DNA of 64,000 nt from a virus, in IMG/VR virus record IMGVR_UViG_3300031703_000003, positions 7,497-71,496 of that record; one strand, 5' to 3'. The translations under genes and the position numbers were made by a program. Below the pieces are notes generated by a model that was not told the DNA's origin, did not search any database, and saw only the letters and a list, made by a program, of their open reading frames with translations. Positions within the stretch are counted from its first letter, which is position 1. Every line of letters begins with the position of its first letter. This document shows, piece after piece, positions 6,965 to 64,000 of this stretch.

Positions 6965-8513
6965 GCTTAGTAGTCTCTAGTATACAAATTTCAAAAAACT
7001 CTTTCATTTCAGGAAATGTTTCTAAGAAATTTAGATTCCTACGTTTGTCATACTCTTCTACAAACTTAACAAAATTAATACGCTTCATTGATATTGATTG
7101 ATTAGTTGAGGTATTGTCTGGAGCTGTTTGATCTTTTATTTGCTGTAGTATATCAATTAATATTCTTCGTAGCTTCAGCGACTCGTTAGCTTCGAACCCC
7201 ATTAATTCATCCCAGCCTGGGTTAGTTGTGTTCTTATACATAAACTCTACTGCTGGAAACAAATAGTCTTGCACTAATGCTAACGTAATTATGTTTGCAT
7301 CTAAAAATTCAGGGTGCCTTACATACGGAATATCAATTCCGACACGCGAAGCCTTTCCACTTGGTCTGCCTATATGTAACGGAGATTTGTATCGACCTAG
7401 TTCAGCTGAAACATCAAGTCCGCATTCTTCAAACCACTTAACAAGACCATTTATGTTATAAGATTGTTTTAAGAATAAAACATACTCTAGTAATTTCTTA
7501 AATGATGTTATGCTAAACACGTTGAACGCAGACATAAATGTAATTCTACTATTGTCGGTATTGTCAAGAAAATATTCTACATTTTCTTTAAACAACTCCC
7601 AGTTCATTCCGTGTCTGCTGTATTCGCATTGGGCGTCAGTTGCCTCGGCACTAACAAACAATGTCATGTTCCTAACACTGTTAGTGTCTGTTAATTGTTT
7701 TGATAGCGTTGTAAATTTTGTCCAAAGTTTTTCTGGAACACATGCATTGCTGTTTACTGCAAACTCTAAATTTGGATTTGGATTCTCTAAAAGATATTCC
7801 ATTACTTTAAACGTGTGCTTACTCATTAGAGGCTCGCCGCCTGTTACTCTAAAAGTGTGCATAGACTTTGATGCTTCAGGAAACCATTTCCAAAAAGCCT
7901 CGGTGTATGGATTATCCTCTTTGTCTTTGTATTGTGCTTTACCAAGTGCGTTAAACGTAGAGCCGTTTACTTTATACGGACCGTGTGTTGTTATTTCTTC
8001 TATCCACTTACTACTGAACATTGGTCCACAGTAACTACATTTTAAATTACATACATTACTAAAACTTACTTCTACATACTTAGGCATGACATCTTCGTCA
8101 CCAGTCATTTGTACAATGTCGTCGTGTGAATCTAAACTATAAGAATCTAAACTTTTTAATGTACGGTCACTAAATTCTCCAGTGTTGTCTTCTATTCTCC
8201 AACAAAAGTCACACTCGCTTGGACGCTTGCCTTCTAACATTGTTTTGCGTTGTTGTTTCTTAAATAATGTATTATGTAATGCGCTTGGGTTGTTAGCAAT
8301 TTCTTCTAACGGAATCTTGTGTGCAACTGGATGATGACAACTATGAGTCAGTCCCTGACCTAGGTGCATAGTAACCTGTGTCCATTTTGCTAAACAAAAG
8401 CCCGGGCCTTTGTCGTTTAACAAATCACGCATTGCAATCTTGTTGTCATGATCAGCATAGATGTTACCATCGTTTGCTACAGTCATGTTAGAATCTTTTA
8501 ATTTTTTGCTCAT
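6942..8513 (-). CDS. Radical SAM protein with N-terminal twitch-like domain
   Basis: FCLAKW...SCHHP...ECDFCW, then CNLKCSYC and TGGEP. ATG at 8513 is coupled to the upstream stop. Confidence 0.85.
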   Translation of the reverse strand: MSKKLKDSNMTVANDGNIYADHDNKIAMRDLLNDKGPGFCLAKWTQVTMHLGQGLTHSCHHPVAHKIPLEEIANNPSALHNTLFKKQQRKTMLEGKRPSECDFCWRIEDNTGEFSDRTLKSLDSYSLDSHDDIVQMTGDEDVMPKYVEVSFSNVCNLKCSYCGPMFSSKWIEEITTHGPYKVNGSTFNALGKAQYKDKEDNPYTEAFWKWFPEASKSMHTFRVTGGEPLMSKHTFKVMEYLLENPNPNLEFAVNSNACVPEKLWTKFTTLSKQLTDTNSVRNMTLFVSAEATDAQCEYSRHGMNWELFKENVEYFLDNTDNSRITFMSAFNVFSITSFKKLLEYVLFLKQSYNINGLVKWFEECGLDVSAELGRYKSPLHIGRPSGKASRVGIDIPYVRHPEFLDANIITLALVQDYLFPAVEFMYKNTTNPGWDELMGFEANESLKLRRILIDILQQIKDQTAPDNTSTNQSISMKRINFVKFVEEYDKRRNLNFLETFPEMKEFFEICILETTKHEANQPS

Positions 8514-15942: not shown

Positions 15943-18900
15943 CTAATTCCACGTAGTAGGTGTAATGTCAGTTGATACCAATGTTGCAATATCTATTTCA
16001 TTTATTACTAACGTTTCTGTTACACCAAGTGTAACTGTGTCTGCTGCTGTAACTGATCGGTTAACTTCGCTAATCTTAACATGAAACGGTTTAATCTCGT
16101 TTACATAGTTTTCAATTTGCTGCACACTGTCCTTCTTGTATTTCTTCTGTTGTGTGACTGAACTCTGAACCTCTAGTCTAATATACGATGTTTTCATTGC
16201 CCAGTCAACCTGTTTATTCCTAGTTAGGGTATAATCTATCATACCAAAGAAGAACTCGTTGAATTTGATTGCATGTCTATCTGCAAACAATAATGTACGC
16301 AATATAACAACTATAGATTTCCACCATGCTGCAATAAACTGGTTGTCCCATGTTACACTATCCCACGGTTCCATATCCCACGTATATGATTTGCCCAAAC
16401 GTTCAATGTTCCATTTAATTGCTGCGTTATTCTTTTTAGCTAATACCCAGCCTCTGTCAAGTGTATGAATATAAAACTCAGTACGATCAATTTTGCCTGA
16501 GTTAAGTATTTCTATTCTTGCAGTTTCGTATTCAGTTATATCAAGTGAGTTAAGCTCTTCTATGCTAGACACTTCTGTTATGTATGTGTCCGCTGTATTG
16601 TAATCAGCTGTAATGTAGTCTGTCCATGACCATGAATTACGTGGAAGCTTATCCTCGAATCCAGGTGCAGTTGCTGCATTATGTAACGCAATTTCGAATC
16701 TAGAATTATAATCATCATATACGTTAACAGATACAAGCAAACGGTTAATAATATTTAGCGCGTTTAATCTTGCACTTGGAATATCATCAAACCAAGCTTG
16801 GCGTTTTGTTCTGTCACCGCCGTAACGTGCATATGCATGCAAGTTAAAATCTGGTATACGATCTTCGTTTTCATCAATTACTGCTAGGTTGTTTGACAAT
16901 CCTGTTACCCAATAGTCTGGAATAACATCTACGTCCTTGCTTAATAACACCCACTGACTATGATTGTTTTCTACTGCTCTATTTAGCTGCACAACAACTG
17001 GCTTCTTTACAAAGTCCCAGATGTCAGATATAATAATACTATCATTGTCAACTACTGAGAACCAGTATATGCCATTGGCACTTGGGTCAGTTATAATATT
17101 TTCAACTTCGGATGTTGTGATACTCTTACTGCTACTTCCAATTGTTGATTTGTTACGTACCCAAAAGTAGTACACATTTTCGTATTTAGTGACAGTAGGA
17201 TTCCATTCACTTTGCAATGTAAAGTAGTATTCGTTTTGATTTTTTATAGCATCAAATTCATAGTATGCTGTGCCAGATGCTATTACTCCAAACATTGCTG
17301 TCTGTGCTTTTACTGCACTTGCATAGTCATCAGGTGCAACTGAACTCTTTGTCCATTCCCAGATAACAACTTCACTGTCTACAAACTGGCGGCCCCAGTT
17401 ACTTGACTTGTCTTTTAGATCGCCTTGGTCATAATCATAATATCTAACCTTGCTAGTATCCCACCAACGCTTGCCAACTTCGCTGTCAGTCCATGCGCTA
17501 TCAACATCCACTTCATATTCTTCTTCAGTTGATGTGTTATATACTGCAACATCATGTACACTCTTAACATCAATTTCTATGTCAGCAACACCAGGTATTA
17601 TGCCTCGCATTGGATCAAACAATTCTAAGTCAAGCACAGGAGTATTAGTATCATAATCATATACAGTTATGTTGTCTATGTCAGTGTTTAATATTCTAGT
17701 GTACTGTTGTCTAACTAATGCTAGTACAGGAGTTAATATTTTAGAAGTTGCATTTGTTGTATAACCTGCACCTGTTATGGCATCTGCACCTGTTGTTGCA
17801 TATGCGACGTTGAATACATTAACCGAATCTACATCAGTAGTATCTTTGTCTGTCCATATAAATGCACCAGGAGGAGTGTTCCATTGCACAAGTAACATCG
17901 CAGCGTCACGGTTAGCTATTGTTTCAAATCTATGTGTGCGCAATGTCATTATACTTGGGCATGATCCACATGTATCTATATATTGATCAATGTAGAATTC
18001 TTTATTGCTACCTAGTTTAGTTACTTTATGTATTCCATCTATGTTAGGAACAGTAGTTGTGTTTAACATCATTACAAAGTCACCAACTGCTAAGTTGTGA
18101 GCAAGCTGTGTTGTAACTTGTGCATCATTGCCGTCCACTGAATGTGTGCCAGCGCATATTCCACATGTTGCATAGTTTACGCCAGATGGATTGTTAGCCA
18201 AGTCTTCTGTGTATAGCTCAGTGTTTTGTACTTGGAATACATTCCATCCGTTAAACTTTGTCTTCAATGCGTTAATTGCAGGCCCTGCGTAATCGGAATC
18301 ATTTGCAACCCACACATTAAATAATGCAGGATCCAAGTGACTTATATTTAACCATTCGCTATTTACAAATGTGTTGTCTAGTGTAGAATCAATCAATGAT
18401 GATACTGTGCCTGTTACAAAACCTGCTTGTTGATTGAATATTGTACTTGTAAGTGCAAGAGTGTCGTTAACAGATGTAATTTCAATTTGGTTACTACTGT
18501 TTAATGCCACAGTGACACCAGCGATATTCGCTGCATTAATTGCAATAATTGCGTCGCTTGCTAGCGTAGGAGCCTGTACTGGATTAGTCACAGCAGCTTT
18601 GCTAGTTGGTAACCCAAAGCTAGTTAATAAACTTCCTGATAATTCTAACAACGATCGCCCTGTGCTTGTAATTCTTAATTTACTACTTGCAGCAGCAGCT
18701 ATTATGTGCGAAGGACTAGCCGAGTTAATTTGGTTAACAATTTGAGCAAGTGATAACGCAATGCCCTGTGTTACAATGGTTGATGGTGTAATAACATTGT
18801 ATCCTGTTGCCTTTAATCCAATTAGTGCATTTGTTGCGCTTGGTGTTACTATCAACAAAGATGTTGTATCAGGTGCCCAATATCGTATACGTAGTCTGTT

Positions 18901-21900
18901 GAAAACTGGATCTAAATCTGCAAGTATTGCATTGTCTACTCCTGCTGTTATACTAATACTAGCAGCAGTTAATGTGTTATTAATAGTAGTCGCAATTTCT
19001 GCAGATGTAATTGCAACTGGTGTGTTTGTAATTGTAATTGTAATTTCCGCGCCTGATAGCGGAGCGGTTGTAAACACAACGTCCTGTCCTGCAATGCTAT
19101 AATCAGTTCCAACTAGATTCAATACATTGTCTACCTTTACATGTTTAATTACACGAGCAGTACTTGTAATATCTTCTACTACAGTGAAGGTATCTTCTAG
19201 GTCATCTGCTGCAGCAACAGATGACAATGTAATTATAATTTCAACACTGGGCTCACTAAATGCAGCCCAACCTAGCTCCGTGAAGTCGAGATCTTGTCCT
19301 GAGATAAAAGCACCATAGAAGCCACCTTTGGTGTATGCATTTGCTCCGTCTACTTCCACTGTTGCAATTGTATACCCTGCTGCACTTATTGTCTGAGCCA
19401 CAGTGTAGACAGACTGACCAGCAACACTGTTCATCGTTTCAACTATATTAGCAGGTGTTACTGCATTGTTTATGCCATTAAATTCTTCAGTTGAATCACC
19501 AGGCGCTGCGTTGCTAAAGTCAATTGATATACCATTAATTGTTATTGCCTTGCCTGCAACATCGCTTATAACTGGGTTAGCAATTGTACCTATTATTTCA
19601 GCAGGTCCTGTAACAACTGCTACTTCTTGCATGTTAATAAATGATATTGTTGCACCATCTATTCCCAATGTTGTACCTGATGCAATAGTTGGATTTACAA
19701 CTGTACCAGTTGCGACTATGTCTGATCGTACATCAACTGATGATTGGAATAATATATCTACTCCGTCAATAGTTGCTATAGTTCCGTAAGAAAATTCAGG
19801 TCGTACGTTACCAGTTTGTTTAATGTCAGTTGACACGGTACTAATAGTTGTGTTAGGAACAATACATTCAAATAGCTGTCCTTGGTACCTGGTTAAGTTT
19901 GTTAACTTGTAACTTACTGCTTTGTTCCATGTACTGATAGTTGAGTAATCAGCAATTGTGTCAAACACATTACTAATTTCTGTAGTTGTATTTACTTTGT
20001 ACTTGGCTTCTATTTCTAGTACCGAACCTGCTGTCAAGTTCTTAACGTTGCCGCTTGTAATTGAACTTGTAGCAAATGCAGTGTTGCCAGGGTTAACAAA
20101 TCTCTTGTCTCCGCTGTTGTACACTAGCACATCATCATACACTGTTTCAGCATCTGCAAATGATGCAAACTTAATAACCTGTGGCGATGTTTCTAGTTTA
20201 TTATTTTGTAATGTAAATTCAACACTGTTCAGTCTGTCAGTGTTACCAAAATAACTTCTTGACAACATATACTGTTCATGTACATTAACATCCAGTTTGT
20301 CTTCTGCAAACTTACGTTCAATTTTATCAATGCTGTTTCTAGAACCGCGTTGCTTAATTAATCCTTGATAGAAATCACGTTTTGTAATTTCATCAAATTC
20401 GTTGCCTGCAATTGTAAGACTGTTGTTTGAGTTACCTATTGTAATATTTTCTAATTTAGTAATTGCTGGATTAAAATCAATGCCATCGGCTCTATAGTAA
20501 TCGTCGATTGCCTGTACACTACTATCAAAGTTCTCAACAATCTTATTGTCAAATACTAAGTAGCCAGGTGCTGACTTACTACCTGTCCATGCATCTGTGA
20601 TTAATCCTCTGAACTTAATTTTGTCTTGTCCTGTATTTGACACACTATCTTTTACAACAACACCAAATTTTGTCTTGTTGTTTAATAATGCAATGTGTTC
20701 ATACTGTACAACAACAAATCCAACTGATCCAATTGTCTCATTTTCTTTTGTGGTAAGTGTCAGTACATTATCTAGACGAGATACGTTAAGTGATTCAGAA
20801 TCTATAATTGATCCATCAAGTCTTGCTACTGTGTTTTCTTTGAACACACCTTTATTTAATTCTTCTACTACACCGTGTGCAGGACTGAACGTAAGTGTTT
20901 TACCTATGTTAAATATCTTTGAGGGATTGCTTGTGTATGCAGGAGCAGTAATTGCCCACTTGACAAATGCAATTGCAACACTATCACCCGAGTATGGAAA
21001 TTTAAAGCCGATAGATTCTAAGTGAGCATAGTATCCTCTTATAAAAGTATATGTGTCTTGTATTTTTCCTAGCACAGTATTGTACTCTACTATACTTGCC
21101 ACTGGCGCAAACTTTTTATATTTCTTAACATCAATTCCGCTTATTGTAACATTTGAATATGATGTTGTGTTTGTGTTGTCTGGTTCAAGGAATAAGAATT
21201 CTTGTTTGCCGTAGCCCTGGCCGCTTACTTCCCAGCCAGTTGCAACTCGTGTAACTACAATAGAACTTGCAATAGATATTGCAATAGGTGAGCTCTTGTA
21301 CATTTCAATGTCAAAGTCATTCTCACCAAGTGTATGTGCAGTATTATCATATGTATCTGTTTTCATATCTATTAAATGTTTGCTACTGAATCCATTTAAT
21401 AAAGTGCCAAGCTGTGTATCAATTCTATTATGTAGGTTATCAATACTATAATCAATATTGTTACGCAATGTGTAGTTATATAATGCCTGAGTGATACCAC
21501 ATGCTACATGTTCAACTTGCTTCATTGTAATTGTAATAGTTGAGTTATTAATCTGTGATGCAGTCATGTTAGTGTACACTGCTGGCTCTGTGGTATGCGA
21601 TCTACCTCTTCGTGAAATGCTTGCGCCAGTTACAAAATATCTACTAACACCATCTGATCCGATAGTTGGAATAGTTTCATCCAGTGATAATGTAGCTAAT
21701 GCTTCTACTGCATTATCATCACCTATTAATTTTATATAAGTTGATTTACTAAACTTATCAGTTGCAGATGTTGTTATTGTTATGCCTGCTACAACTTCAT
21801 TGTAAACCGTGCCTGGTACTGCATACGATGCAGGTGTATGGAAATCTTTATTGTCTCTGTCTAAATAATCAATGTTTGTTTGTTGACTAGTAGTACCTGG

Positions 21901-24900
21901 GTAATAAAAATCAGAGAACGCTCTTGGTGGATTTAGCTTAACTACTACATTTATTAATGCAGCTTGTCCTGCTGCAGATGTTCTCCAGCTATACTCTAAT
22001 CCTGCCCAGTCACCAAACACAAACGGCTTTGATTTGTCTAGTTCTGATATACTGTCAGCACTTAGTACAGTTGCTACGTTTTCTAATTGACCATCTGTTT
22101 TAACTGGACATTTGCTGACCCAATCCCAATGGTAGTTCGCATGTTTAATATTTTGCTGAGTAGTAGATGATTGACCTGTTTGCAATGCGTTAATAAGTGC
22201 AATGCGCTTAGTTGCATCTGTCCAGCTATACGTTGCATCCCACCATGTTGGCTTAAATCCAAACCCTAGCATGTGCCAAGGTGTTAAATGCGGTGTAGAT
22301 GTTCCAAATAATATGTTATAAGCACCTATCCAATGACCTGGTAGTTGTTGTCCACTTAGGTGCCCTTTTAATATTGTACTGCTAAAATTTATTGTGTCTA
22401 TGTTACTTGCATCATATGCAACAGTTGTTTCTGTTAAGTTGCTAATTGACTTCCATGATGTGTACGACTTATATAGCATGTCGTTTACTGTTGCTAACGT
22501 GTACCACGTAGCATACGTCTGACTAGGCATATAAGATATAGCAGATGCATATTGCACAGTTTGATTGTTTTCACGTTCTGTATTAATGCTATCAGTTACA
22601 ACTAAGCCGGCATATATTCTCAACTCAAGTTCAAGTTGCGCTGCGTTAATTGGATCAAATTGTGCAGAGTTCATGTTAGTTAAATCGCTGCCTGGGTTAA
22701 TATCCCATTGGTACCCGTCGTGTCCTATTAAAACATTAGTAGGAGCTGCATGCGGAACCCAACCTGGTGCCATTTTCAGTTTAGTAATACTTGGTGGAAT
22801 ATAAGATGCATCGTCCATTGCGTAATGATATACCGCTATTACTGGAAGCGGTCCTGCTGGCATTGCAACTGGTATATAATCAAATTTTAATGTACTACCT
22901 GCCTGTGTGTAATCAACATCTTTTTGTAACATATGCGTTAACAGAACACCACCTACGTTATCTGTTACGTATACATAAACGTGATCTTGTATGTTATCAT
23001 CACTGTGTATGTTATCATCTAGTGTAAGTGTGGGAGCTACTCCTGCTGCAATTTCAAACTCTTGTACAACTGCTTTTGTGTAGTATGCCATGTTTGATGT
23101 TGAGAATAACTTTCCGCCCTTGCGATTGATAGTTATTGATTTTAGTACATCGTCAACTAAACTTTTCACGGATGCATAGTTCTTCTTTCCATACATTCTA
23201 ACAACTTGGTTTCTAAATCTATTTCTAAAGTTATCCCATTCTACACCTGCAGAGTTTAATGCATCTGTTACACTCACAACACTGCTTGCATACAATGCAT
23301 CACTTATGATACTAATATCTTTGTGGACAAAAATCTCGCCGCCTAAGTAATTGCCTTTAAACAACTGCGAATAATTGTTAGTGCCGTATACATTTCCAGT
23401 AAATCCTGGTGTGTTTTCTAGCATATTCTTCCAATGAGAAAATGTCTCGCTCATTGTGAATGTGGTTAGTAATTTATTTGTTGGGTTACTTTTAATCGTA
23501 TCAGGTGATGTAATGTTCAATGTATTGTTGCTAACATTATTATCATAATATCTCACATCAACTACATCGCCTAGTGCAATGTGTTCTTTAGCGACTACAA
23601 TATTAGCTGCGTTAATTGTATATTTGTCTGTTCCTAGAAACACTCCATTTACGTTAACAGTGTGATATAGGCTATCTTGTTTGTTAGTTGGTATAAGTGT
23701 GTAGGTACCATTGATTGTTGCATCAACTGGTGCGATAACAATCTTTTCATTGTAAGAAGATAAATCTATCACAATAGTATTGTCTGCTTGGTCAGCAGTT
23801 GGTGTAGTACGTGGAACGTCTACTCCGCTTACAGTTTTAATTGTAACTGCTGAATTGAGTAAATTATTATGTATTGTAGTTGATCCTTTATTCACATAAA
23901 CAAAGTTATGGTCAACATTAGTTTTATCAAGATATGTTCCATTTTTTAGTTCTGTTATTACACAAGTCTGATTTTCATTTTTTAATGCTTGGTGTAATAT
24001 AAGTTCGTGATCAGTTGGTAACCATGTGCTAGACCCAACATTTATTGTTAGATCAGTTGTTAGATCAGTTACATCAACTGTTATAAGTGTTTCTGCAGCA
24101 TTGGCTTTTTCGCTTTGCTTGTACACACTACTTAATAAATTATTGTTCTTAAACAAGTATGTGCCATCGATTTTGCGGTACTGATTTACTTTTTTGCTAA
24201 ACTGAGAAGTAACACTTTGGTATTGAGTTTCTGTTAGAATATAATTTTCAAATTGATATTCTGCAATGCCGTTGACGTCTTTGTATGCAAGAGCAAATCC
24301 TAATTCCTTGTCAGTTAGTCCACTGCCAACTTTGTAATTAAATACGCGACTGCCTGCAAATGCAGACCCAGGCAGGTCCTCAAGTGGTGTGCCACTTGTA
24401 TCGTACAACCTAAATAATGGCATTTGATTAATGTTAATGCGTTGCTGACCAGTACTCCACTTCGCGCCTGTCCACCATGCATCTGAATTTGACCAAGCTT
24501 TATCCATTGTGTCTGGTAGTGCTGATCTAATATATGCTGTGTGGTTTGTTTCTAGCACGGCTGTAACTGATTTAGTTATAGTCCAAGTACTAGTAGAGGC
24601 ATCAAATGATTTGCTTGCTATTGTGTAAACGTTTGTATCAGTTGATGTGCCGTCTTCGTTTATGAATATAACAGTTTGACCAACTTGTACTTCTGATAGT
24701 ACAGCAAGACTTGATCCAACTTCAACTGCAAAGTCAACTATGCCCAGCCATTGTTTAGCAAGAGTAGGACTATAAGAAGCCCAATCCCATAAGTTCATGT
24801 TGCCTTCGAACTCGACAATTGGACGTGATGCAATATTCTTCTGTGCTGTTAACTCTTCTATATTAATGCCGCCATACACTAAATCGTTTATTAATTTAAG

Positions 24901-26166
24901 TGTGTCTACGTTTGTCCATTTATTATTTCTGCTCCAGGCAGTATTGAACACACTGCTAGTAGAAGATACAACGTAATCCTTTTCTGTAAATATCACAACT
25001 GACTTATCATAGTGTGAAGTATCCCAGCCTTTTAGTTTATCTTTGTATGTTGCTATTGCAGCCTCTGTTGTGCCTGCTGCCATTGATTGTGTAAATCCGG
25101 TAGCTGTTTCTGTTGCATCAATTAATAATACAAATGCAATATCGCCTGCTTCTGTGCGTGTAGTGTAATATAGCTTATGGTGTTCTACTTCGTTAAGATT
25201 CCATTCTTGACTAAATGCAATAAGGTCGCCAACTACAAACTGTGTTTTGTTTGATTCTGCAGACGTAAATGTAAACCCATCAAACAATGGCAATCTTGTT
25301 GCGTCTGCATTGTAATGTGCAAGCATGTCTGTTGGTGTTGTTAGATTATGTGTTGTCCAAAATGAACTACTTACATTAGGATCAATTAATGTTGCGATTT
25401 TCTCATCCCATAAGCCGCCAACTGTTACTGTTGTTTTTGTTGTTCTTGGTAATATAGTTGTATGTGTTGTCCAATTATAAATTGGAGTAAGCTTAATGCT
25501 TGTCCCTGTCCCTGACACTGCGTATGTGTAGTTTTGTGCATCTGCATGCCAGCCACTGCCAGTAAACTTTATATGCATCTGGTCTCTAAGATTAAATGTA
25601 TTATTGTTATCAGTTAGTATATATGTTAATTGATCAGCTGAAAGGTCGATTGGGTTTATTACATCGCTGAATCCTGCATAGTTACCATTGCGTGAATGTA
25701 ATATGTTTGTTGGATCACTTAATGTTCGTATACTTTCATATGTTGGCATTTGATCAACCCATGCGTAACTTGCGTAGTTAATAAACTTATGAGTGTCAAT
25801 TGGAGGATAATAACCATATTGCTTTGTTGCGTATGCTGCGTTGTAATTATATGCGCTAACGTTTACATTAATAGCGTTTGCAATGTCGTCTACTGTAATT
25901 GCGTCTATTAAGTTTTTATTTTTATCTCTTACTGTAATCGTTGACAGCATGTCAGTGCTTGGCAAATACACATCATTCACTGATCGGTTCTTGCCTGACA
26001 CGTCTCCAATGAAGCCTTCCACATTTTTTAACGTACCTTTTGAAATCATTCTATCAAGTGTACTATCTAGCCAATTCTTGTTTACATCAGTATTGAAAAC
26101 CTGAGGTATTAGACTAGACGCTTTCATCTGTGGAGTATTATAACTTCCTGCTTTTTTCTTAGACAT
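15943..26166 (-). CDS. Very large baseplate wedge/structural protein (gp7-like position), 3407 aa
   Basis: Uninterrupted ORF directly after the gp6-like gene; C-terminal YVNEIKPFHVKI motif; W/D-rich segments. Confidence 0.65.
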   Translation of the reverse strand: MSKKKAGSYNTPQMKASSLIPQVFNTDVNKNWLDSTLDRMISKGTLKNVEGFIGDVSGKNRSVNDVYLPSTDMLSTITVRDKNKNLIDAITVDDIANAINVNVSAYNYNAAYATKQYGYYPPIDTHKFINYASYAWVDQMPTYESIRTLSDPTNILHSRNGNYAGFSDVINPIDLSADQLTYILTDNNNTFNLRDQMHIKFTGSGWHADAQNYTYAVSGTGTSIKLTPIYNWTTHTTILPRTTKTTVTVGGLWDEKIATLIDPNVSSSFWTTHNLTTPTDMLAHYNADATRLPLFDGFTFTSAESNKTQFVVGDLIAFSQEWNLNEVEHHKLYYTTRTEAGDIAFVLLIDATETATGFTQSMAAGTTEAAIATYKDKLKGWDTSHYDKSVVIFTEKDYVVSSTSSVFNTAWSRNNKWTNVDTLKLINDLVYGGINIEELTAQKNIASRPIVEFEGNMNLWDWASYSPTLAKQWLGIVDFAVEVGSSLAVLSEVQVGQTVIFINEDGTSTDTNVYTIASKSFDASTSTWTITKSVTAVLETNHTAYIRSALPDTMDKAWSNSDAWWTGAKWSTGQQRININQMPLFRLYDTSGTPLEDLPGSAFAGSRVFNYKVGSGLTDKELGFALAYKDVNGIAEYQFENYILTETQYQSVTSQFSKKVNQYRKIDGTYLFKNNNLLSSVYKQSEKANAAETLITVDVTDLTTDLTINVGSSTWLPTDHELILHQALKNENQTCVITELKNGTYLDKTNVDHNFVYVNKGSTTIHNNLLNSAVTIKTVSGVDVPRTTPTADQADNTIVIDLSSYNEKIVIAPVDATINGTYTLIPTNKQDSLYHTVNVNGVFLGTDKYTINAANIVVAKEHIALGDVVDVRYYDNNVSNNTLNITSPDTIKSNPTNKLLTTFTMSETFSHWKNMLENTPGFTGNVYGTNNYSQLFKGNYLGGEIFVHKDISIISDALYASSVVSVTDALNSAGVEWDNFRNRFRNQVVRMYGKKNYASVKSLVDDVLKSITINRKGGKLFSTSNMAYYTKAVVQEFEIAAGVAPTLTLDDNIHSDDNIQDHVYVYVTDNVGGVLLTHMLQKDVDYTQAGSTLKFDYIPVAMPAGPLPVIAVYHYAMDDASYIPPSITKLKMAPGWVPHAAPTNVLIGHDGYQWDINPGSDLTNMNSAQFDPINAAQLELELRIYAGLVVTDSINTERENNQTVQYASAISYMPSQTYATWYTLATVNDMLYKSYTSWKSISNLTETTVAYDASNIDTINFSSTILKGHLSGQQLPGHWIGAYNILFGTSTPHLTPWHMLGFGFKPTWWDATYSWTDATKRIALINALQTGQSSTTQQNIKHANYHWDWVSKCPVKTDGQLENVATVLSADSISELDKSKPFVFGDWAGLEYSWRTSAAGQAALINVVVKLNPPRAFSDFYYPGTTSQQTNIDYLDRDNKDFHTPASYAVPGTVYNEVVAGITITTSATDKFSKSTYIKLIGDDNAVEALATLSLDETIPTIGSDGVSRYFVTGASISRRGRSHTTEPAVYTNMTASQINNSTITITMKQVEHVACGITQALYNYTLRNNIDYSIDNLHNRIDTQLGTLLNGFSSKHLIDMKTDTYDNTAHTLGENDFDIEMYKSSPIAISIASSIVVTRVATGWEVSGQGYGKQEFLFLEPDNTNTTSYSNVTISGIDVKKYKKFAPVASIVEYNTVLGKIQDTYTFIRGYYAHLESIGFKFPYSGDSVAIAFVKWAITAPAYTSNPSKIFNIGKTLTFSPAHGVVEELNKGVFKENTVARLDGSIIDSESLNVSRLDNVLTLTTKENETIGSVGFVVVQYEHIALLNNKTKFGVVVKDSVSNTGQDKIKFRGLITDAWTGSKSAPGYLVFDNKIVENFDSSVQAIDDYYRADGIDFNPAITKLENITIGNSNNSLTIAGNEFDEITKRDFYQGLIKQRGSRNSIDKIERKFAEDKLDVNVHEQYMLSRSYFGNTDRLNSVEFTLQNNKLETSPQVIKFASFADAETVYDDVLVYNSGDKRFVNPGNTAFATSSITSGNVKNLTAGSVLEIEAKYKVNTTTEISNVFDTIADYSTISTWNKAVSYKLTNLTRYQGQLFECIVPNTTISTVSTDIKQTGNVRPEFSYGTIATIDGVDILFQSSVDVRSDIVATGTVVNPTIASGTTLGIDGATISFINMQEVAVVTGPAEIIGTIANPVISDVAGKAITINGISIDFSNAAPGDSTEEFNGINNAVTPANIVETMNSVAGQSVYTVAQTISAAGYTIATVEVDGANAYTKGGFYGAFISGQDLDFTELGWAAFSEPSVEIIITLSSVAAADDLEDTFTVVEDITSTARVIKHVKVDNVLNLVGTDYSIAGQDVVFTTAPLSGAEITITITNTPVAITSAEIATTINNTLTAASISITAGVDNAILADLDPVFNRLRIRYWAPDTTSLLIVTPSATNALIGLKATGYNVITPSTIVTQGIALSLAQIVNQINSASPSHIIAAAASSKLRITSTGRSLLELSGSLLTSFGLPTSKAAVTNPVQAPTLASDAIIAINAANIAGVTVALNSSNQIEITSVNDTLALTSTIFNQQAGFVTGTVSSLIDSTLDNTFVNSEWLNISHLDPALFNVWVANDSDYAGPAINALKTKFNGWNVFQVQNTELYTEDLANNPSGVNYATCGICAGTHSVDGNDAQVTTQLAHNLAVGDFVMMLNTTTVPNIDGIHKVTKLGSNKEFYIDQYIDTCGSCPSIMTLRTHRFETIANRDAAMLLVQWNTPPGAFIWTDKDTTDVDSVNVFNVAYATTGADAITGAGYTTNATSKILTPVLALVRQQYTRILNTDIDNITVYDYDTNTPVLDLELFDPMRGIIPGVADIEIDVKSVHDVAVYNTSTEEEYEVDVDSAWTDSEVGKRWWDTSKVRYYDYDQGDLKDKSSNWGRQFVDSEVVIWEWTKSSVAPDDYASAVKAQTAMFGVIASGTAYYEFDAIKNQNEYYFTLQSEWNPTVTKYENVYYFWVRNKSTIGSSSKSITTSEVENIITDPSANGIYWFSVVDNDSIIISDIWDFVKKPVVVQLNRAVENNHSQWVLLSKDVDVIPDYWVTGLSNNLAVIDENEDRIPDFNLHAYARYGGDRTKRQAWFDDIPSARLNALNIINRLLVSVNVYDDYNSRFEIALHNAATAPGFEDKLPRNSWSWTDYITADYNTADTYITEVSSIEELNSLDITEYETARIEILNSGKIDRTEFYIHTLDRGWVLAKKNNAAIKWNIERLGKSYTWDMEPWDSVTWDNQFIAAWWKSIVVILRTLLFADRHAIKFNEFFFGMIDYTLTRNKQVDWAMKTSYIRLEVQSSVTQQKKYKKDSVQQIENYVNEIKPFHVKISEVNRSVTAADTVTLGVTETLVINEIDIATLVSTDITPTTWN

Positions 26167-26189: not shown

Positions 26190-29100
26190 TCAAATGACGT
26201 TACTAACGATATCAATATCGTCGACGCTAACATCAGGTATAAACATTTCATCAATGCTTGGAGTTATTTCAAATAGCTGACCAAACACGCTAGATGAACC
26301 TTGTGGTACAATAACAAAACTGCTTATTGACATTGCTAACTCTTTGTGTACAAATGCTGCAAGTTCAGTAAAGTAAAAAGTCTCACCAAAGTCCCAGTTT
26401 GTTACATCAAAGAATGTAGCTATTGCTGCTACAACTGCTGATCTTATTTCACTGTCAACTACATTACTGCCTTTGACTTTTACTACATTAAACGTAGCAC
26501 GTAGTGATGAAATTGCAGAAGGTCCAAACAATGTCTTGTATTTAACTGGTTTGTAAATCACTGTATCACTGATTGTTTTTTGTTGTTCAACTCCTACAAA
26601 GTTAGTTGTTAATGCATCACTTGTAGGTGGAGTTGGTTCGTATCCTAAATCTGTTAATAGCCAATTTCTATATTCAGTGTCGTACGTTTTATCAAGTACG
26701 TACACATCAATTATGTTTGTGTAACTTGGATCAACTATCTCCCTGTCTGCCGCATAATGGCGCCATTCAAATCTTAAATCAGTTTGTGATACTCTAGTTG
26801 GGTAAATGTTAGTTGGGTCAACTATCTCCCTGAACACTAGTGGGTTGTCAGGTCTACTATCAGCGTTGTCATCTACAATTGACAAGAATACATGAGATGG
26901 ATCAATTACACCATTTGCGTCTTGTTCTATTCCGCTTACATACATTTTGCCAAGTGAAGCAATTGCTCCATTTAATACGCCAGTAAAGCTAATAGTATCT
27001 TGTGCTTTTTTCTTTGTAAGCGAATCAAGTCCTGCTGTTAAACTAACATTTGTAAATGCAACACTTGCACTTTCTAAGACATATCTAAGTGTGCGTGTGT
27101 ATATATTATATTTCTGGTCAGCGAATTCAAAATACATTAACCAAGAATCATCTGTATTATTAAGTATAGCTGGATACGTTGATGTATATGCGGCAGGGTT
27201 GTTGTCTAGTTCCCAACTTTGATTTTTATAATCATATCTAATTGCAAATGTTTTCTTTGAATCAATGTATGCTTTAATAATATTTGCTTCTCTGGTCTTA
27301 AACAAGCGATTAAAGCTAGGTATAATTATATCAATGATACTACCAGTTGGTACATTCTTATCAAGTGTTATTGCGCCTAATCCGTTTGATCGTAATCCAC
27401 TTGGTTGTCCAAGTTGCGATCCATCAAGATCTACACCCAATCCATATGCAAATACGTTTAGTACTTTAGCCCATGTTACAGTGCCGTCTAGTGCAACAAA
27501 TTTAATTAGAGCGCCAACGTTAAACTGGCGTAAGTAATTAGTCTGTGACTTGCCTACACGTAGTTTTGCACCAGATGTGTTGTCTGACAAGTAACCTGTG
27601 TTTGCATTATAAGAGCTACTACCAGGGGCATTCCATTGGTATCCGCTAACTGTTTCATCATATGCGTATTCTGTTTTTAGATTATCAAATGCTGTTGAGA
27701 ATTTAGTATAATATAAGTTAATAAGATCAAAATCAGCTAACTGAGTTTTTACATATTTCTTATAGATGTAATCTTTGTTTTGTCCTGTGACTGTTGTTTG
27801 TGTTTTAACTACAGTTGACTGATACAACTTTCCATCTGTGCCGTTTAGCAATAAGTTACTATACTCGCCTGTTGGGTCTGTAAAGTCAACATATCTACTA
27901 TGTCCACTGAATGTTCTGTTAACACTTTTTACTTTAACTACATTTGATGATTGCTGAGTAAGCAATGTATTATAATCATTTGCCGTTACTAATCTATTTT
28001 GACTTGCGTATGCAAGCGGTGCATTTTGTTTAATGCTGTCTAATGTTTCTGATGAACTAGCGTTGGTAATACTTGTTTTCAATTGCAAAGTAAACAATGC
28101 TACATATGTATTGCCGTCTAGTCCAGTATAATTTACTGTAACTTTTTTGTTTGTTAAATCATCTGGGCGTACTGTATATGACTCGTTTTTACTTACACGG
28201 AACCATACACGGATAATGCCAATTGGTAAATTACCAAATGCACTGTCTGCAAAATTAATTGATACTTGATTATTCTTTCTAGTTTTTACACTAAAAATGT
28301 TTCTGTTAGTTGCAATAATTGGATTGTACGCTACACTTTTAACACCTGTCCATTCTTTTACAATGGCGCCTTGCGCGTTAATAGTCTGTACCCATACATC
28401 GCTATTATTAATATCGTTTACATTAATATCAATTGTTTGATTGTCAATTGGCTTATCAATCTTAATGTCTTTAAATTGTAATCCACCTTCTTTGACTCCA
28501 AAGAAGAAACCAGTGTCCTTGTCAGACAATCCGCGGCCACTATTTTTATAGTAGACACCAAAGCTTCCATTTGGATTAGGAGATTTTTCATAAACAATAT
28601 TGTCAGCATAATCAACACTTACAATATTGTATTGTGTACTATCGCCATTTGCAAGTCCTGTAATGTCAAACTTGATTTGTTTCGGCTTGTTGTTTAGTTC
28701 GTAAAATTGTTGTGTAATGTTACCAACTGTTGTTTGTTTCTTTGGGCTACCAAATTGATTGCCGTATTGTAGTACGCTGTTCATTACAGCAATAAAATCA
28801 TCTAAGTTGTTTACATTACTAGTTGATTCAAATCTTACTTCTTTGCCGCCTAAACTTGTTCCTGCACTACCAATTACAGGTTCATTTGTTTTTACGCTTA
28901 TAACTTTCATCTCGCCAAACGCTGACACGTTGCGTCGTGGAGTGTATCCAATAAATTCAGCTAACTTAAAAACACTCTCTTGTCGTTCTGCTGTGCTTAA
29001 AAAGTTGTTACGGGAGTTAAGATCAACTCTAAATGCTAAGTTGTGTCCCATTTGTGCAACTACGTCAAGTAGTGCTACAAATTCTGCTGATTCAATCCAG

Positions 29101-29686: not shown

Positions 29687-30244
29687 CTATCCTAGAGTGA
29701 CAATCTCTGCTAAGTGTAGTTTTTCTTCAGGCCAGTGGAGAAAATCCTGCCATGCCATGTCTGGGATGTACAAATCATAGTGTAATGCAGCGCCGTTAAT
29801 TTGATACCATGTTGGCTTAACTGGCTTAGTTATTGGCCTTACGGGTCTGTCACCTTTTTTAACATTACAAGGTCCGCATGCCGCGACAGTGTTTTCCCAT
29901 ATTAGCTTTCCGCCTTTGGATTTTGGTATTACATGGTCAATAGTTAAGTCAGCGGCTGCGAACATGTTGCTACAGTACTGACAACAGAATTTATCCCGTA
30001 TGTACAGGTTCCTGCGGCAGAACTTTGCTCTTGTTGGGTGCTTGTGAAATCTATTCATCATAACAACACTTGGTAGTGGTATAGTAAGACTACTGCTTCT
30101 TAAAAATCTATTTTCGTAATTTTTAATAACACGAACTTTGTCTCCAAACATTGCTTTTATTGCAGTCTGCCAACTTATAGTACTAAGTGGCAACATACTT
30201 AGTGGTTGTGCATCTGCATTTAAAAGTAGTACACTGGCATGCAT
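29687..30244 (-). CDS. HNH endonuclease
   Basis: RD...CQYC, TIDHVIPKSKGG...WEN.V.AC..CN..K. Confidence 0.9.
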   Translation of the reverse strand: MHASVLLLNADAQPLSMLPLSTISWQTAIKAMFGDKVRVIKNYENRFLRSSSLTIPLPSVVMMNRFHKHPTRAKFCRRNLYIRDKFCCQYCSNMFAAADLTIDHVIPKSKGGKLIWENTVAACGPCNVKKGDRPVRPITKPVKPTWYQINGAALHYDLYIPDMAWQDFLHWPEEKLHLAEIVTLG

Positions 30245-39399: not shown

Positions 39400-39852
39400 T
39401 TGAGCAGTGAAAGCAAAACTAGCAACTGGACTTATAACAATGTAGCAGTTGATGAACTGCCGGTAGATGTTGAAGGGTTTGTATATTTAATTACAAACCT
39501 TACTAACAACCGTAAGTATATAGGTAAGAAGTTAGCAAGGTTTAAAACAACTAAGCCTCCTCTTAAAGGAAGAAAGAATAAGAGACGAGGCACAAAGGAA
39601 AGTGATTGGAGGACCTATTGGGGTTCTTCAGATCATTTGAATGCAGATTTATTAATGTTAGGTGAAGAAAGCTTCACTAGAGAAATTATACATTACTGTC
39701 CTAGCAGAGGAGTATTAAGTTACTTAGAAGCAAAAGAACAGTTTGATCGTAAAGTTTTAGAATCAGATGATTACTACAACGGTATTATTAATGTGAGAGT
39801 TGGAAGTTCTAAGATTCTCACAGAGCATTTAAGAAAGGTCGACAAGCTATAG
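39400..39852 (+). CDS. Small GIY-YIG (Seg-like) nuclease
   Basis: GFVYLITN..N.RKYIGKK, W..YWGSS, F.REI, YLEAKEQ, YYN. Single domain; TTG start. Confidence 0.8.
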   Translation: MSSESKTSNWTYNNVAVDELPVDVEGFVYLITNLTNNRKYIGKKLARFKTTKPPLKGRKNKRRGTKESDWRTYWGSSDHLNADLLMLGEESFTREIIHYCPSRGVLSYLEAKEQFDRKVLESDDYYNGIINVRVGSSKILTEHLRKVDKL

Positions 39853-39881
39853 CATTTATGTTATGCTGCTAACAAGAAATA

Positions 39882-39943
39882 CACAGACACCAAGTCAATT
39901 CAAGCACAGACACCAAGTCAATTCAAGCACAGACACCAAGTCA
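39882..39943 (+). repeat. 23-bp tandem repeat, about 2.7 copies (CACAGACACCAAGTCAATTCAAG)
   Basis: Exact copies at 39882 and 39905, partial copy at 39928; followed by AATACATTTCT x2 at 39961-39982. Confidence 0.95.
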
Positions 39944-39986
39944 CGCTAATACAAACACAAAATACATTTCTAATACATTTCTAATA

Positions 39987-40330
39987 AAGGCACCACATGG
40001 CTCTGTTTGGTCGGGTTTCTCGACTACACCTTGAGGTTACGTGCTAATTCACGTGATCGGATACTGGTGTGCCCTTGGTCAATGCGCTGGTCTGACCAAC
40101 CAAAATGAGTAAGCTCTCCTGACAATTTGGAACTTACGAGTAGCCTTTAGTCGTCGTTATGGCAATAGGTGTTCTTGCGCTGATAAGCAGTAAGTAAAGA
40201 GGTACCGCACAACCGCCTCTTCCGTGTGCTAATACGGTTTTACTATAACGAGTGGGTAACTTTGATGGGAAATGTTCTGACATTTTTATTGAAATTATTT
40301 TGCATTTGGCTTTATAAAGCTAAGTGTGAA
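39987..40330 (+). ncRNA. Putative structured non-coding RNA (unassigned; strand inferred)
   Basis: ORF-free, GC-richer than flanks, at least 8 nested or consecutive helices with many G-T pairs on the + strand. Confidence 0.55.
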
Positions 40331-40509
40331 TAACAAATCAAGGAAATAGTAACTAATATATAATCATAAATATAATTACTATGTTGTATATCACTATTAG
40401 TTAATCTTAAGTATAAGAGTTCTAAAAATAACATTGAAGTAATGCTTTAGCATTACGAAGATGATGATGTCGTAAGACATCGATATACTAAACAATATAT
40501 AATCTTAAT

Positions 40510-40965
40510 ATGAAATGGACAGCTATGACTTTTGAAGAGTTCTGTATAAAATTTGTCGAGTGGACTATAAGAGATGTAGAAGCAAAAAAACTTGATGGCT
40601 TTGCTGTATGTCCATTTGCCCGTAAGGCTAGAATAACTAATGCAATTCAGTTTATGGATTGCAGAGATAATAACTTAGATAGTTATAGAGCATTTGATAG
40701 AACTAAATTTGAAATTGGCATTGCGTGGGTAGATGGTAATAATATAGTAGATGTACAGACTGTACTTGACGTCTTGTCAAGCGAACATCCAGAACTACTA
40801 TACTTTACTAGTACACCAGAATCTGGGCATTTTGTTCAAAACTTTACTAATTGTGTGTTTATACAATCACGAGAGGACATAATGGAAAAGAGAGCAGTAA
40901 TGCAAAAGACCAGCTATTACGACAGCTGGCCTAAAGCTTACTTAGATAGTATTACTTCCGTGTAA
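40510..40965 (+). CDS. Hypothetical protein (CPFA motif, DUF1415-like)
   Basis: VCPFARKA motif; C-terminal YYDSWP. Confidence 0.6.
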   Translation: MKWTAMTFEEFCIKFVEWTIRDVEAKKLDGFAVCPFARKARITNAIQFMDCRDNNLDSYRAFDRTKFEIGIAWVDGNNIVDVQTVLDVLSSEHPELLYFTSTPESGHFVQNFTNCVFIQSREDIMEKRAVMQKTSYYDSWPKAYLDSITSV

Positions 40966-63001: not shown

Positions 63002-64000
63002 ATGGCACAGAAAAAATTTATAATCGACGGTGGATTCCAAACTAATGCTGATTCAGTACTAGCTGGCAATCTATCAATGACGGGTTCAATCATCCCGACA
63101 ATTGATTCAAATGGTACAACAGGTTTCGACCTTGGTTCGCCATCAATGAAGTGGCGCGACCTTTATCTGTCGCAAGGTTCACTATACATTGACGGACAAA
63201 AGGTTATCGAATCTGACGCTGGTACGATTGTTGTACAAGCAGATGCAGGTCAGTCATTAACAACTAAAGTTTCAGGACTTGGTGTAATGACACTGTCGTC
63301 AGCTACAACAGTTAATATGGCAGCAACATTACAAATGCAGCCAGGTAAGAAGATTACTGACTCTGCAGGAAATGCAGTAACGTTTGGTGATAAAGTTGAC
63401 ATGGACAACAACCAAATCATCAATGTAGCAGCACCAACAGCAGACGGTCATGCAGCAAACAAAACATATGTTGACTCAGCAGTTAGTGACATACTTGGCG
63501 GAGCACCTGGTGCATTAGATACACTTAATGAACTAGCAGCAGCATTGTCAAATGATGCAAATTATGCAACTACTATAACAACTGCACTAGCTTTAAAAGC
63601 AACTACAGTTTATCTTGATGCGCAGGTTGCATTAACAGAAACATTTGCTACAGACCAAGCAACTACTAAAGCTACAGCAGCACAAAACGCAGCAGCAACA
63701 GATGCAACTACTAAGGCTAACACAGCAGAAGCAGACGCAATTGCAACAGCAGCATCAGATGCAACTATTAAAGCTAACTCAGCTGAATCTAGCGCAGCAA
63801 CAGATGCAACTACTAAAGCTAACGCGGCACAGGCAGCAGCAGCAACAGATGCAACTACTAAAGCAAATGCAGTATTAGCAACAGCAGCAACCGATGCAAC
63901 TACTAAAGCTAACACAGCAATCAGTACAGCAAGTGCAGACGCAACAGCTAAAGCTACAGCAGCAACTAACACAGCAAGTGCAGACGCAACTACTAAAGCT
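63002..64000 (+). CDS. Second fibre-like Ala/Thr-rich protein (partial, runs off window end; not in ORF track)
   Basis: Manual translation MAQKKFIIDGGFQTNADS...DLGSPSMKWRDLYLS...GAPGALDTLNELAAAL...ATDATTKAN repeats; AAGGA RBS. Confidence 0.8.
   Translation, partial: MAQKKFIIDGGFQTNADSVLAGNLSMTGSIIPTIDSNGTTGFDLGSPSMKWRDLYLSQGSLYIDGQKVIESDAGTIVVQADAGQSLTTKVSGLGVMTLSSATTVNMAATLQMQPGKKITDSAGNAVTFGDKVDMDNNQIINVAAPTADGHAANKTYVDSAVSDILGGAPGALDTLNELAAALSNDANYATTITTALALKATTVYLDAQVALTETFATDQATTKATAAQNAAATDATTKANTAEADAIATAASDATIKANSAESSAATDATTKANAAQAAAATDATTKANAVLATAATDATTKANTAISTASADATAKATAATNTASADATTKA

Follow-up and report, generated by a model that had tools for sequence, protein, structure and literature searches.

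The window analysed here, 64,000 nucleotides of the IMG/VR virus record IMGVR_UViG_3300031703_000003 (positions 7,497 to 71,496), carries on its + strand a structured RNA gene at 39990-40330, downstream of a small GIY-YIG nuclease gene. It forms part of a 71.5-kb viral contig, estimated to be ~20% complete, and holds genes of the T4 type: the gp47/gp46 recombination nuclease, gp25, gp53, a gp26-like baseplate protein, the portal gp20, a prohead protease, and the capsid protein gp23. The window gp46 is closest to those of the jumbo phages PA5oct, Phosso, and Atu_ph07 (45-49% identity), and the source is a jumbo phage. Around the RNA, the gene order is gp47, gp46, the GIY-YIG gene (39400-39852), a 657-nt stretch free of open reading frames (ORFs), a gene for a 151-aa protein (40510-40965), and convergent baseplate genes. 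An initial annotation, prepared from the sequence alone, had singled out this stretch as the longest ORF-free gap; at 39853-40509 it is the largest internal one, two nominally larger gaps being window-edge effects. The GC content is 46-52% at 40000-40250 compared with about 33-37% in the flanks, and it drops to 18-27% at 40300-40500. Detection of tRNA and tmRNA genes in the window with ARAGORN returned 0 genes.

The same annotation had proposed that the gap is filled by a selected multi-helix RNA read from the + strand, and covariation among relatives bears this out. Folding energy favors the + strand to a modest degree (minimum free energy of -100.5 kcal/mol, z = -1.85, with 4 of 100 shuffles equally stable), while the - strand folds no better than its shuffles (z = +0.80, 79 of 100 equally stable). 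A z-score of this size from one sequence is modest, and it is covariation that carries the case. Relatives were located with a 21-base invariant pattern taken from 40111-40135, which matched 43 loci in viral and 42 in metagenome sequence. The matches in L056, L062, and L096, all metagenomic, are put down to chance: these three agree only with the pattern part of the model, lie in unrelated contexts, and were dropped from all counts. The pattern loci yielded 43 distinct full-length versions of the RNA.

Standard pairs were counted in three alignments and compared with slid controls, in which every 3′ partner was shifted by 1-3 columns. In the core alignment A3, which comprises 30 versions with the structure written from the window, standard pairs fill 97.6% of the 1106 pair cells versus 32.5-44.6% after sliding, 21 of 37 pairs show changes on both sides, and the covariation score is 0.540 versus 0.046-0.136. 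Over the whole RNA in 33 versions of the window's clade, 90.3% of the cells are paired (35.9-46.7% slid), with 31 of 83 pairs compensatory. An alignment of 68 diverse versions, which was fitted to a covariance model and hence is biased towards structure, gave 92.8% paired cells (36.5-47.5% slid), compensatory changes in 26 of 30 pairs, and a score of 0.747 (0.044-0.133 slid). An unguided all-against-all covariation scan ranks the same core pairs first. The G-T pairs that had been read as favoring the + strand recur as frequent G-U pairs (for example, GU in 22/30 and 23/30 versions and UG in 29/30), which would become C-A mismatches if the RNA were encoded on the - strand. A conserved reading frame is absent from the 43 versions, which differ by 1-nt indels and have median stop-free stretches of 41 codons (+) and 59 codons (-). 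One 49-codon ORF on the - strand (40134-40283) was rejected, as indels of 1 nt interrupt its frame in relatives. The element is thus a real structured RNA gene rather than the product of chance folding.

Six of the eight helices drawn in the initial annotation are supported by covariation, and seven are either maintained through compensatory changes or invariant in relatives. Within the variable 5′ domain (39993-40105; all features of the RNA are on the + strand), the hairpin 40010-15/40019-24, first drawn as GGTCGGG/CTCGACT, is kept in relatives with changes on both sides in two of six pairs. An extended hairpin is composed of 40027-30/40066-69 and 40035-43/40050-58, and its GGTTACGTG/CACGTGATC helix is compensatory in six of nine pairs. 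The ACACC/GGTGT helix proposed to close it is conserved, with three of its four counted pairs invariant and the fourth changing on one side only, in 1 of 33 versions; compensatory evidence points neither way. The helix proposed as TTGGTCA/TGACCAA (40075-40099) stands in part: its GTCA/TGAC center (40078-81/40093-96) is invariant, but the covarying element is an overlapping hairpin, 40088-93/40097-40102 (GC in 19 versions and AU in 14 at one pair), of which the window forms four of six pairs (40088-91/40099-40102). Two further helices were considered, 39993-96/40252-55 as a closing helix and 39999-40001/40071-73; the alignment as given shows pairs in only 51% and 62% of their cells, and neither is claimed.

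The 5′ domain is followed by a conserved 3′ core (40099-40260), which is described by a covariance model, R1, of 162 positions that scores the window at 168.9 bits. The core begins with a hairpin at 40109-13/40133-37 (GTAAG/CTTAC) with an inner stem at 40117-19/40129-31. A long-range 9-bp helix (40154-62/40243-51, TCGTTATGG/CTATAACGA) closes a multi-way junction and encloses 40177-78/40187-88, 40198-203/40215-20 (AAGAGG/CCTCTT), and 40222-25/40234-37 (within the proposed CCGTGT/ATACGG). The four helices of the core named here by their letters had all been proposed before, and all are supported by pair counts. Absent from the earlier description was an H-type pseudoknot with stems 40138-40/40174-76 and 40143-46/40167-70, in which five of seven pairs are compensatory. 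The pseudoknot crosses the long-range helix, its stems enclosing the 5′ strand of the latter. Judged by eye from the alignment, L215, a remote member, apparently retains the topology in a sequence that is wholly different.

Several unpaired nucleotides of the core are nearly invariant: an 11-nt hairpin loop (40204-14; signature GGUAYMGSNNAACCGCC), which caps 40198-203/40215-20, an AAAUGA junction, and a GCUCU/AAC internal loop. An isolated covarying pair, 40192/40241 (columns 156/227 of alignment A7; AU 37, GC 11, GU 4, UA 3, CG 2), joins the junction ahead of the invariant-loop hairpin to the one that precedes the long-range helix on its 3′ strand; it is possibly a junction pair or a tertiary contact. 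The CUCUCCU loop was considered for an anti-Shine-Dalgarno role, which was rejected, given that the loop sequence changes in close subclades, with UCC/GGA becoming ACG/CGU as a compensatory stem change. A search of the window for complements gave nothing beyond the element itself and one 9-nt match, at 28188, to a junction sequence.

Downstream of the core, a variable hairpin region (40261-40298) with the first copy of a lineage-specific box, GGGAAATG, precedes a 14-bp terminal hairpin (40299-40330). The latter, likewise proposed before, has 91.6% of its cells paired and two compensatory pairs, is present in remote members as well, and is not followed by a U-tract. A second copy of the box (AAGGAAATAG) and a hairpin at 40347-53/40376-82 lie in 40331-40385; conserved boxes and hairpins thus continue to ~40385, and the RNA may reach this far. 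The two direct-repeat boxes flank the terminal hairpin, at 40266-40275 and 40337-40347 in the window and in the same places in L011, L012, L018, L026, L015, and L129. They vary by lineage and are alike within each (GGGAAATAG, GGTGAAG, TGTCAAG, GAGAATRTAG, GGTAAAA, and AGATGATG); individually, they do no better than shuffles in most sequences.

A second search used the signature of the invariant loop, GGUAYMGSNNAACCGCC preceded by GUAA, which occurs in at least 119 viral stretches. Among the 80 that were fetched, R1 finds full-length or nearly full-length matches in 79 at E ≤ 1 and in 70 at E ≤ 0.001, with scores forming a continuum from 184 down to 13 bits. The RNA therefore belongs to a large, hitherto undescribed family of uncultured aquatic phages of the T4 superfamily, present on well over a hundred contigs. 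Literature searches found no prior description of it. A blastn search with the gap and with three remote RNA regions gave no match in 50,697 phage records, and the single match of the pattern in 185,579 species genomes has no R1 match and is hence attributed to chance.

The initial annotation recognized no known RNA family, which is correct for the window: scanning the whole window against Rfam at gathering thresholds returned nothing, and the interval 39700-40600 at E ≤ 10 gave three chance-level matches only (two miRNA models and one CRISPR repeat, E of 1-10). The statement does not extend to the family. Six remote relatives (L129, L131, L146, L147, L152, and L159) carry the Rfam family RF01718, Polynucleobacter-1, as their 5′ domain, at 59-108 bits versus a gathering score of 37. 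In four of the six, a match to the R1 core (12-33 bits) begins 0-22 nt after the end of RF01718, and this direct succession suggests a link between the two families through the core; in L152, only the loop signature follows, with nothing found by R1 at E ≤ 5, which brings the number to five of the six when the signature is counted. The scan of 40 other family members gave no match to RF01718, and neither did the window at E ≤ 10. Polynucleobacter-1 resembles the present RNA in being an orphan structured RNA from fresh-water and estuary sequence, and its 3′ end (CUGAUUUGAC) is similar to the last block of the 5′ domain in the window's clade, the only part common to both. It differs in that its 141 positions do not cover the pseudoknotted core, the part that stays constant in the family. 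The family accordingly combines this core with a 5′ domain that differs between clades and comes in at least three kinds, RF01718 being one of them. A 16-year-old Rfam orphan thereby gains its first context: a longer phage RNA, of whose variable 5′ domain Polynucleobacter-1 appears to represent one version.

In Weinberg et al. 2010 (PMC2864571), Polynucleobacter-1 is listed with 16 representatives, from Burkholderiales and fresh-water/estuary sequence, and with the entry "cis-reg? y". This entry is in keeping with a cis-regulatory leader or riboswitch acting on the downstream gene, as is the presence of a same-strand gene for the 151-aa protein after the RNA in 65 of 86 counted loci of the window's clade. 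The downstream gene, however, is absent or convergent in deep clades and several remote contexts (the next gene is convergent in at least seven), and neighbors so varied, and so often convergent, tell against a leader or riboswitch. The gene is set apart from the RNA by an AT-rich spacer of ~180 nt that has a promoter-like site of its own, and neither a terminator/anti-terminator arrangement nor a U-tract is present. We give this explanation little credence. The 151-aa protein, encoded on the + strand, is the usual but not constant downstream neighbor; a Pfam scan gave no family match. It carries a conserved CPFA(R/K)KAR motif, which we presume to echo the active-site motif of omega-class GST or glutaredoxin-like thioredoxin folds.

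Upstream of the RNA, and not part of its gene, the + strand encodes a stand-alone GIY-YIG nuclease of 150 aa (39400-39852) with a SegE-type catalytic domain. It had been described as having a catalytic domain only, which the profile searches confirm: PF19835 (SegE_GIY-YIG) aligns with residues 10-130 over profile positions 1-123 of 123 (E = 4e-34), and the 148-position profile of PHROG 447 is matched end to end (E = 5e-37). Given these full-length matches, the missing DNA-binding extension is normal for the GIY-YIG family found here. A C-terminal DNA-binding domain was looked for in the protein and not found, all 150 aa falling within the catalytic domain or the 148-position profile.

The nuclease gene is a mobile cassette. 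Its conservation is out of step with that of its flanks, it occurs in varied contexts, and it is exchanged as a unit. The exchange is seen directly in two loci, L017 with GIY-YIG and L013 with a PDDEXK_15 nuclease (181 aa, PF24608): these are 88% identical through the end of the gp46 region and 86% identical again from ~25 nt before the RNA fold, with a block of ~530 nt containing the nuclease gene replaced in between. Two unrelated nucleases beside near-identical RNA genes point to a slot rather than a partnership. PDDEXK_15 is probably the older resident of the locus; the window's clade offered no example of an empty nuclease site. The GIY-YIG family occurs in at least 593 viral stretches, the best 80 of which were examined. 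In these, the proteins are 71-85% identical to that of the window and stand in several gene orders, and the adjoining gp46, where detected, is 45-73% identical. The nuclease may spread by homing. A second likely mobile nuclease of the window is an HNH endonuclease gene at 29690-30244 (-), within the baseplate gene block. Also on the - strand, the structural region includes a 3407-aa ORF (15946-26166), to which Pfam assigned no family at E ≤ 1e-4.

The initial annotation had suggested that the RNA and the nuclease work together, loosely in the manner of HEARO/OMEGA systems. As a general proposition, the RNA would be a cofactor, guide, or inhibitor of the upstream GIY-YIG or PDDEXK_15 protein within a gp47-gp46 recombination operon. 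The arrangement itself is suggestive. Of the 83 real pattern loci in the window's clade, 81 have a small nuclease gene of the same strand immediately before the RNA (59 GIY-YIG and 22 PDDEXK_15; the other two lack upstream sequence), and the RNA follows PDDEXK_15 in 25 of the 25 loci whose flank is long enough. Among loci sampled by the signature, 73 have sufficient flank, and one or the other nuclease is found upstream in 65 of them; the full 80 comprise 55 with GIY-YIG (six with another gene between), 10 with PDDEXK_15, 8 with neither, and 7 that are too short. In L208, L218, L239, and L263, an ORF of 275-356 aa, at about -1250 to -180 from the signature, separates the GIY-YIG gene from the RNA; some of these appear SGNH/GDSL-like by eye. 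A precedent exists in RAGATH-18, reportedly an orphan motif downstream of a nuclease gene that proved to be the guide RNA of TnpB (PMC11061315).

The distribution of the parts speaks against such a partnership, and we regard it as improbable. The two nuclease folds are unrelated while the RNA genes beside them are nearly identical. The GIY-YIG gene is common without the RNA, which is present by R1 in 15 of the best 80 GIY-YIG loci and in 19 when the loop signature and truncated matches are counted; many of the 61 loci with neither leave less than 110 nt of room. The RNA, in turn, occurs with neither nuclease upstream in the 8 of 73 signature loci (among them L275, which scores 105 bits, and L274, with 68 bits), where some upstream genes resemble, by eye, those for a peroxiredoxin, a MazG-like protein, or a tail-fibre-like protein. 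The linkage to the nuclease is therefore not constant in relatives, and the RNA is independent of any one fixed neighbor. Furthermore, no variable guide-like segment was seen, and the proteins, at 150-181 aa, have no extra domain. PA5oct and Phosso have PDDEXK_15 homologues, yet R1 found no match across either genome. In detail, nhmmer and R1 returned nothing below E = 5 on the two loci and the whole genomes, and Rfam gave no match on the loci. These homologues (PA5oct, L054 6020-8031, 42% identity; Phosso, L055 6386-7925, 35%) lie on the opposite strand beside stretches of 1-1.5 kb, which in PA5oct contain only tiny annotated ORFs and in Phosso none, and in which Rfam and R1 likewise have no match. 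The four noncoding RNAs reported for PA5oct (PMC7318152) are located elsewhere in its genome.

Sequences between the nuclease gene and the fold suggest where a transcript might start. A sigma-70-like match with an extended TG (TCGACA-17-TATGCT, 39839-39867, +) overlaps the nuclease stop codon, which by consensus would put a possible primary transcript start near 39874. Of 42 distinct upstream regions, 33 have a similar site at the corresponding position, compared with 13.8 expected from shuffles. A start there would give a CA-rich leader of ~120 nt holding 11-nt CTAAYAY repeats. Two repeat arrays on the + strand lie in this interval: a 23-nt direct repeat, CACAGACACCAAGTCAATTCAAG, in ~2.8 copies (39882-39945), which is not seen in three aligned relatives, and, just 5′ of the fold, the CA-rich 11-nt repeats (39959-39991), which end in a conserved CTAAYAYAGG and could belong to the promoter or to the 5′ leader. 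The CTA of this motif is invariant in 28 versions, and the stretch lies outside the swapped nuclease cassette, identity resuming ~142 nt before 40111. A reading of CTAAYAYAG as a general promoter motif was discarded, the other exact matches in the window falling inside genes or a coding repeat. The last, open-ended ORF of the window contains, at 63600-64000, a coding tandem repeat of ATDATTKANxA-like units, which accounts for the clustered CTAACACAG matches there.

At the other end, two conserved hairpins at 40439-40456 and 40466-40481 stand between the RNA and the downstream gene, with four-base (GNRA) caps that read TTTA in the window and GATA in relatives for the former and GTAA for the latter. 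At the equivalent position, remote members show a comparable GAGCGATAGCGAAAA block together with a hairpin. The two hairpins could represent the actual terminator, or they could belong to a transcript that runs further.

Sequencing libraries offer a weak hint of a discrete, relatively abundant RNA. The metatranscriptome runs X19 and X20, which may be one data set filed twice, each contain one 215-nt contig that corresponds over its whole length, with one difference, to 39996-40210, although the contig ends need not be transcript ends. This is the sole RNA-library contig on the 1566 nt of 39400-40965; the flanking 1.3 kb is uncovered, and DNA runs cover everything. The hint comes from a single contig of low depth that lies wholly inside the RNA, in libraries into which DNA carry-over is possible.

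These features bear on two further explanations. The RNA could be a 3′-end module of the upstream operon, a structure that serves only to stabilize or process the gp47-gp46-nuclease messenger and has no independent role. It shares the strand of the upstream genes in most loci, and the PDDEXK_15 ORF ends only ~27 nt from the fold. Nonetheless, the RNA is more complex and more conserved than a 3′ stabilizer needs to be, a conserved upstream motif and promoter-like sites are present, and in L277 it lies between two genes that are both on the opposite strand. We consider this account quite unlikely. Still further from what we would expect, and in our view highly improbable, is an origin-of-replication element, with a structured pre-primer RNA, iteron-like repeats upstream, and an AT-rich unwinding region downstream. 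The 11-nt tandem repeats, the GC content of 18-27% at 40300-40500, and the adjoining recombination genes would suit such an origin. The cumulative GC-skew minimum, however, falls near 34-36 kb, where transcription diverges, and not at 40 kb; the family occurs in unrelated neighborhoods; and selection on RNA pairs, G-U included, extends over ~300 nt, which a priming site does not need.

Taken together, we think it probable that 39990-40330, possibly to ~40385, encodes a stand-alone noncoding RNA of the + strand. The combination of a constant, pseudoknotted, junction-rich core with invariant unpaired residues and exchangeable 5′ domains is best fitted by an RNA acting in trans, with a protein or a second RNA as its binding partner, an assignment in which our confidence falls somewhat short of even. 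According to this model, the RNA would act in trans as a folded molecule and not as the leader of a neighboring gene, its invariant loop and junction residues would bind a protein or another RNA, and it would serve as a ribonucleoprotein component or a decoy. The GIY-YIG gene is a free-standing nuclease cassette, mobile in character, that has come to occupy the interval between gp46 and the RNA, where PDDEXK_15 is found in close relatives.

A number of observations weigh against this interpretation. The regular presence of a nuclease gene before the RNA in the window's clade (81/83), together with the RNA after all 25 PDDEXK_15 loci that could be judged, makes some functional tie to the nuclease or to the recombination operon conceivable. 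The RNA-library evidence amounts to one contig at a depth of 2.7, and DNA may be present in libraries of this kind. No U-tract follows the terminal hairpin, and the promoter-like sites agree with a consensus only. Finally, a pseudoknotted fold with invariant loop residues would also suit a ribozyme or a ligand sensor.

The first of these, a self-cleaving or otherwise catalytic RNA of a new class that processes its own transcript, agrees with the complex fold, pseudoknot, multi-way junction, and near-invariant unpaired nucleotides, and with a position at the end of an operon, where processing makes sense. No ribozyme family of Rfam 15 matches at E ≤ 10, a cleavage site cannot be deduced, and the RNA-library contig runs unbroken through the 5′ domain and most of the core, leaving a ribozyme unlikely in our estimation. 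A bolder proposal, to which we assign a small chance, is that the core forms the active center of a new catalytic RNA or RNA-protein machine, a portable gene of aquatic T4-superfamily phages to which Polynucleobacter-1 would contribute one interchangeable 5′ accessory domain. To our knowledge, large and intricately folded RNAs conserved across hundreds of genomes are nearly always ribozymes, sensors, or the cores of RNA-protein complexes, and we know of few from phages.

The trans-acting RNA favored here can be set beside several known systems. Like HEARO/omega RNA with IscB and RAGATH-18 RNA with TnpB, it is a structured RNA of a few hundred nucleotides next to a nuclease gene. It differs in that no RuvC/HNH effector accompanies it, the neighboring proteins being a 150-aa GIY-YIG or a 181-aa PDDEXK_15 nuclease; a scan of 43 window proteins yielded neither a RuvC nor a transposase family. 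In addition, there is no Rfam match, the same RNA occurs with either nuclease or with neither, and a guide segment was not seen. The nuclease gene has a parallel in the Seg genes of T4, where we take the free-standing homing endonuclease SegB to sit in a cluster of tRNA and small stable RNA genes. Here, too, a small GIY-YIG gene lies between conserved genes by a conserved RNA gene, shows far higher conservation than the flanks, and is swapped as a unit; the protein lacks the C-terminal DNA-binding part, and its cleavage and homing are putative. With two unrelated small nucleases competing for one slot, the locus is a natural example useful for understanding how free-standing nucleases spread among phages. 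The RNA itself is best compared with GOLLD and ROOL, large structured phage-associated RNAs that were found by comparative genomics, are supported by covariation, and have no known role. Rfam holds both of these families, neither of which matches the present RNA, and the latter is smaller (~330 nt) with a different architecture. The present RNA is widespread in uncultured marine and other aquatic phages, and the evidence for its fold is unusually clean.

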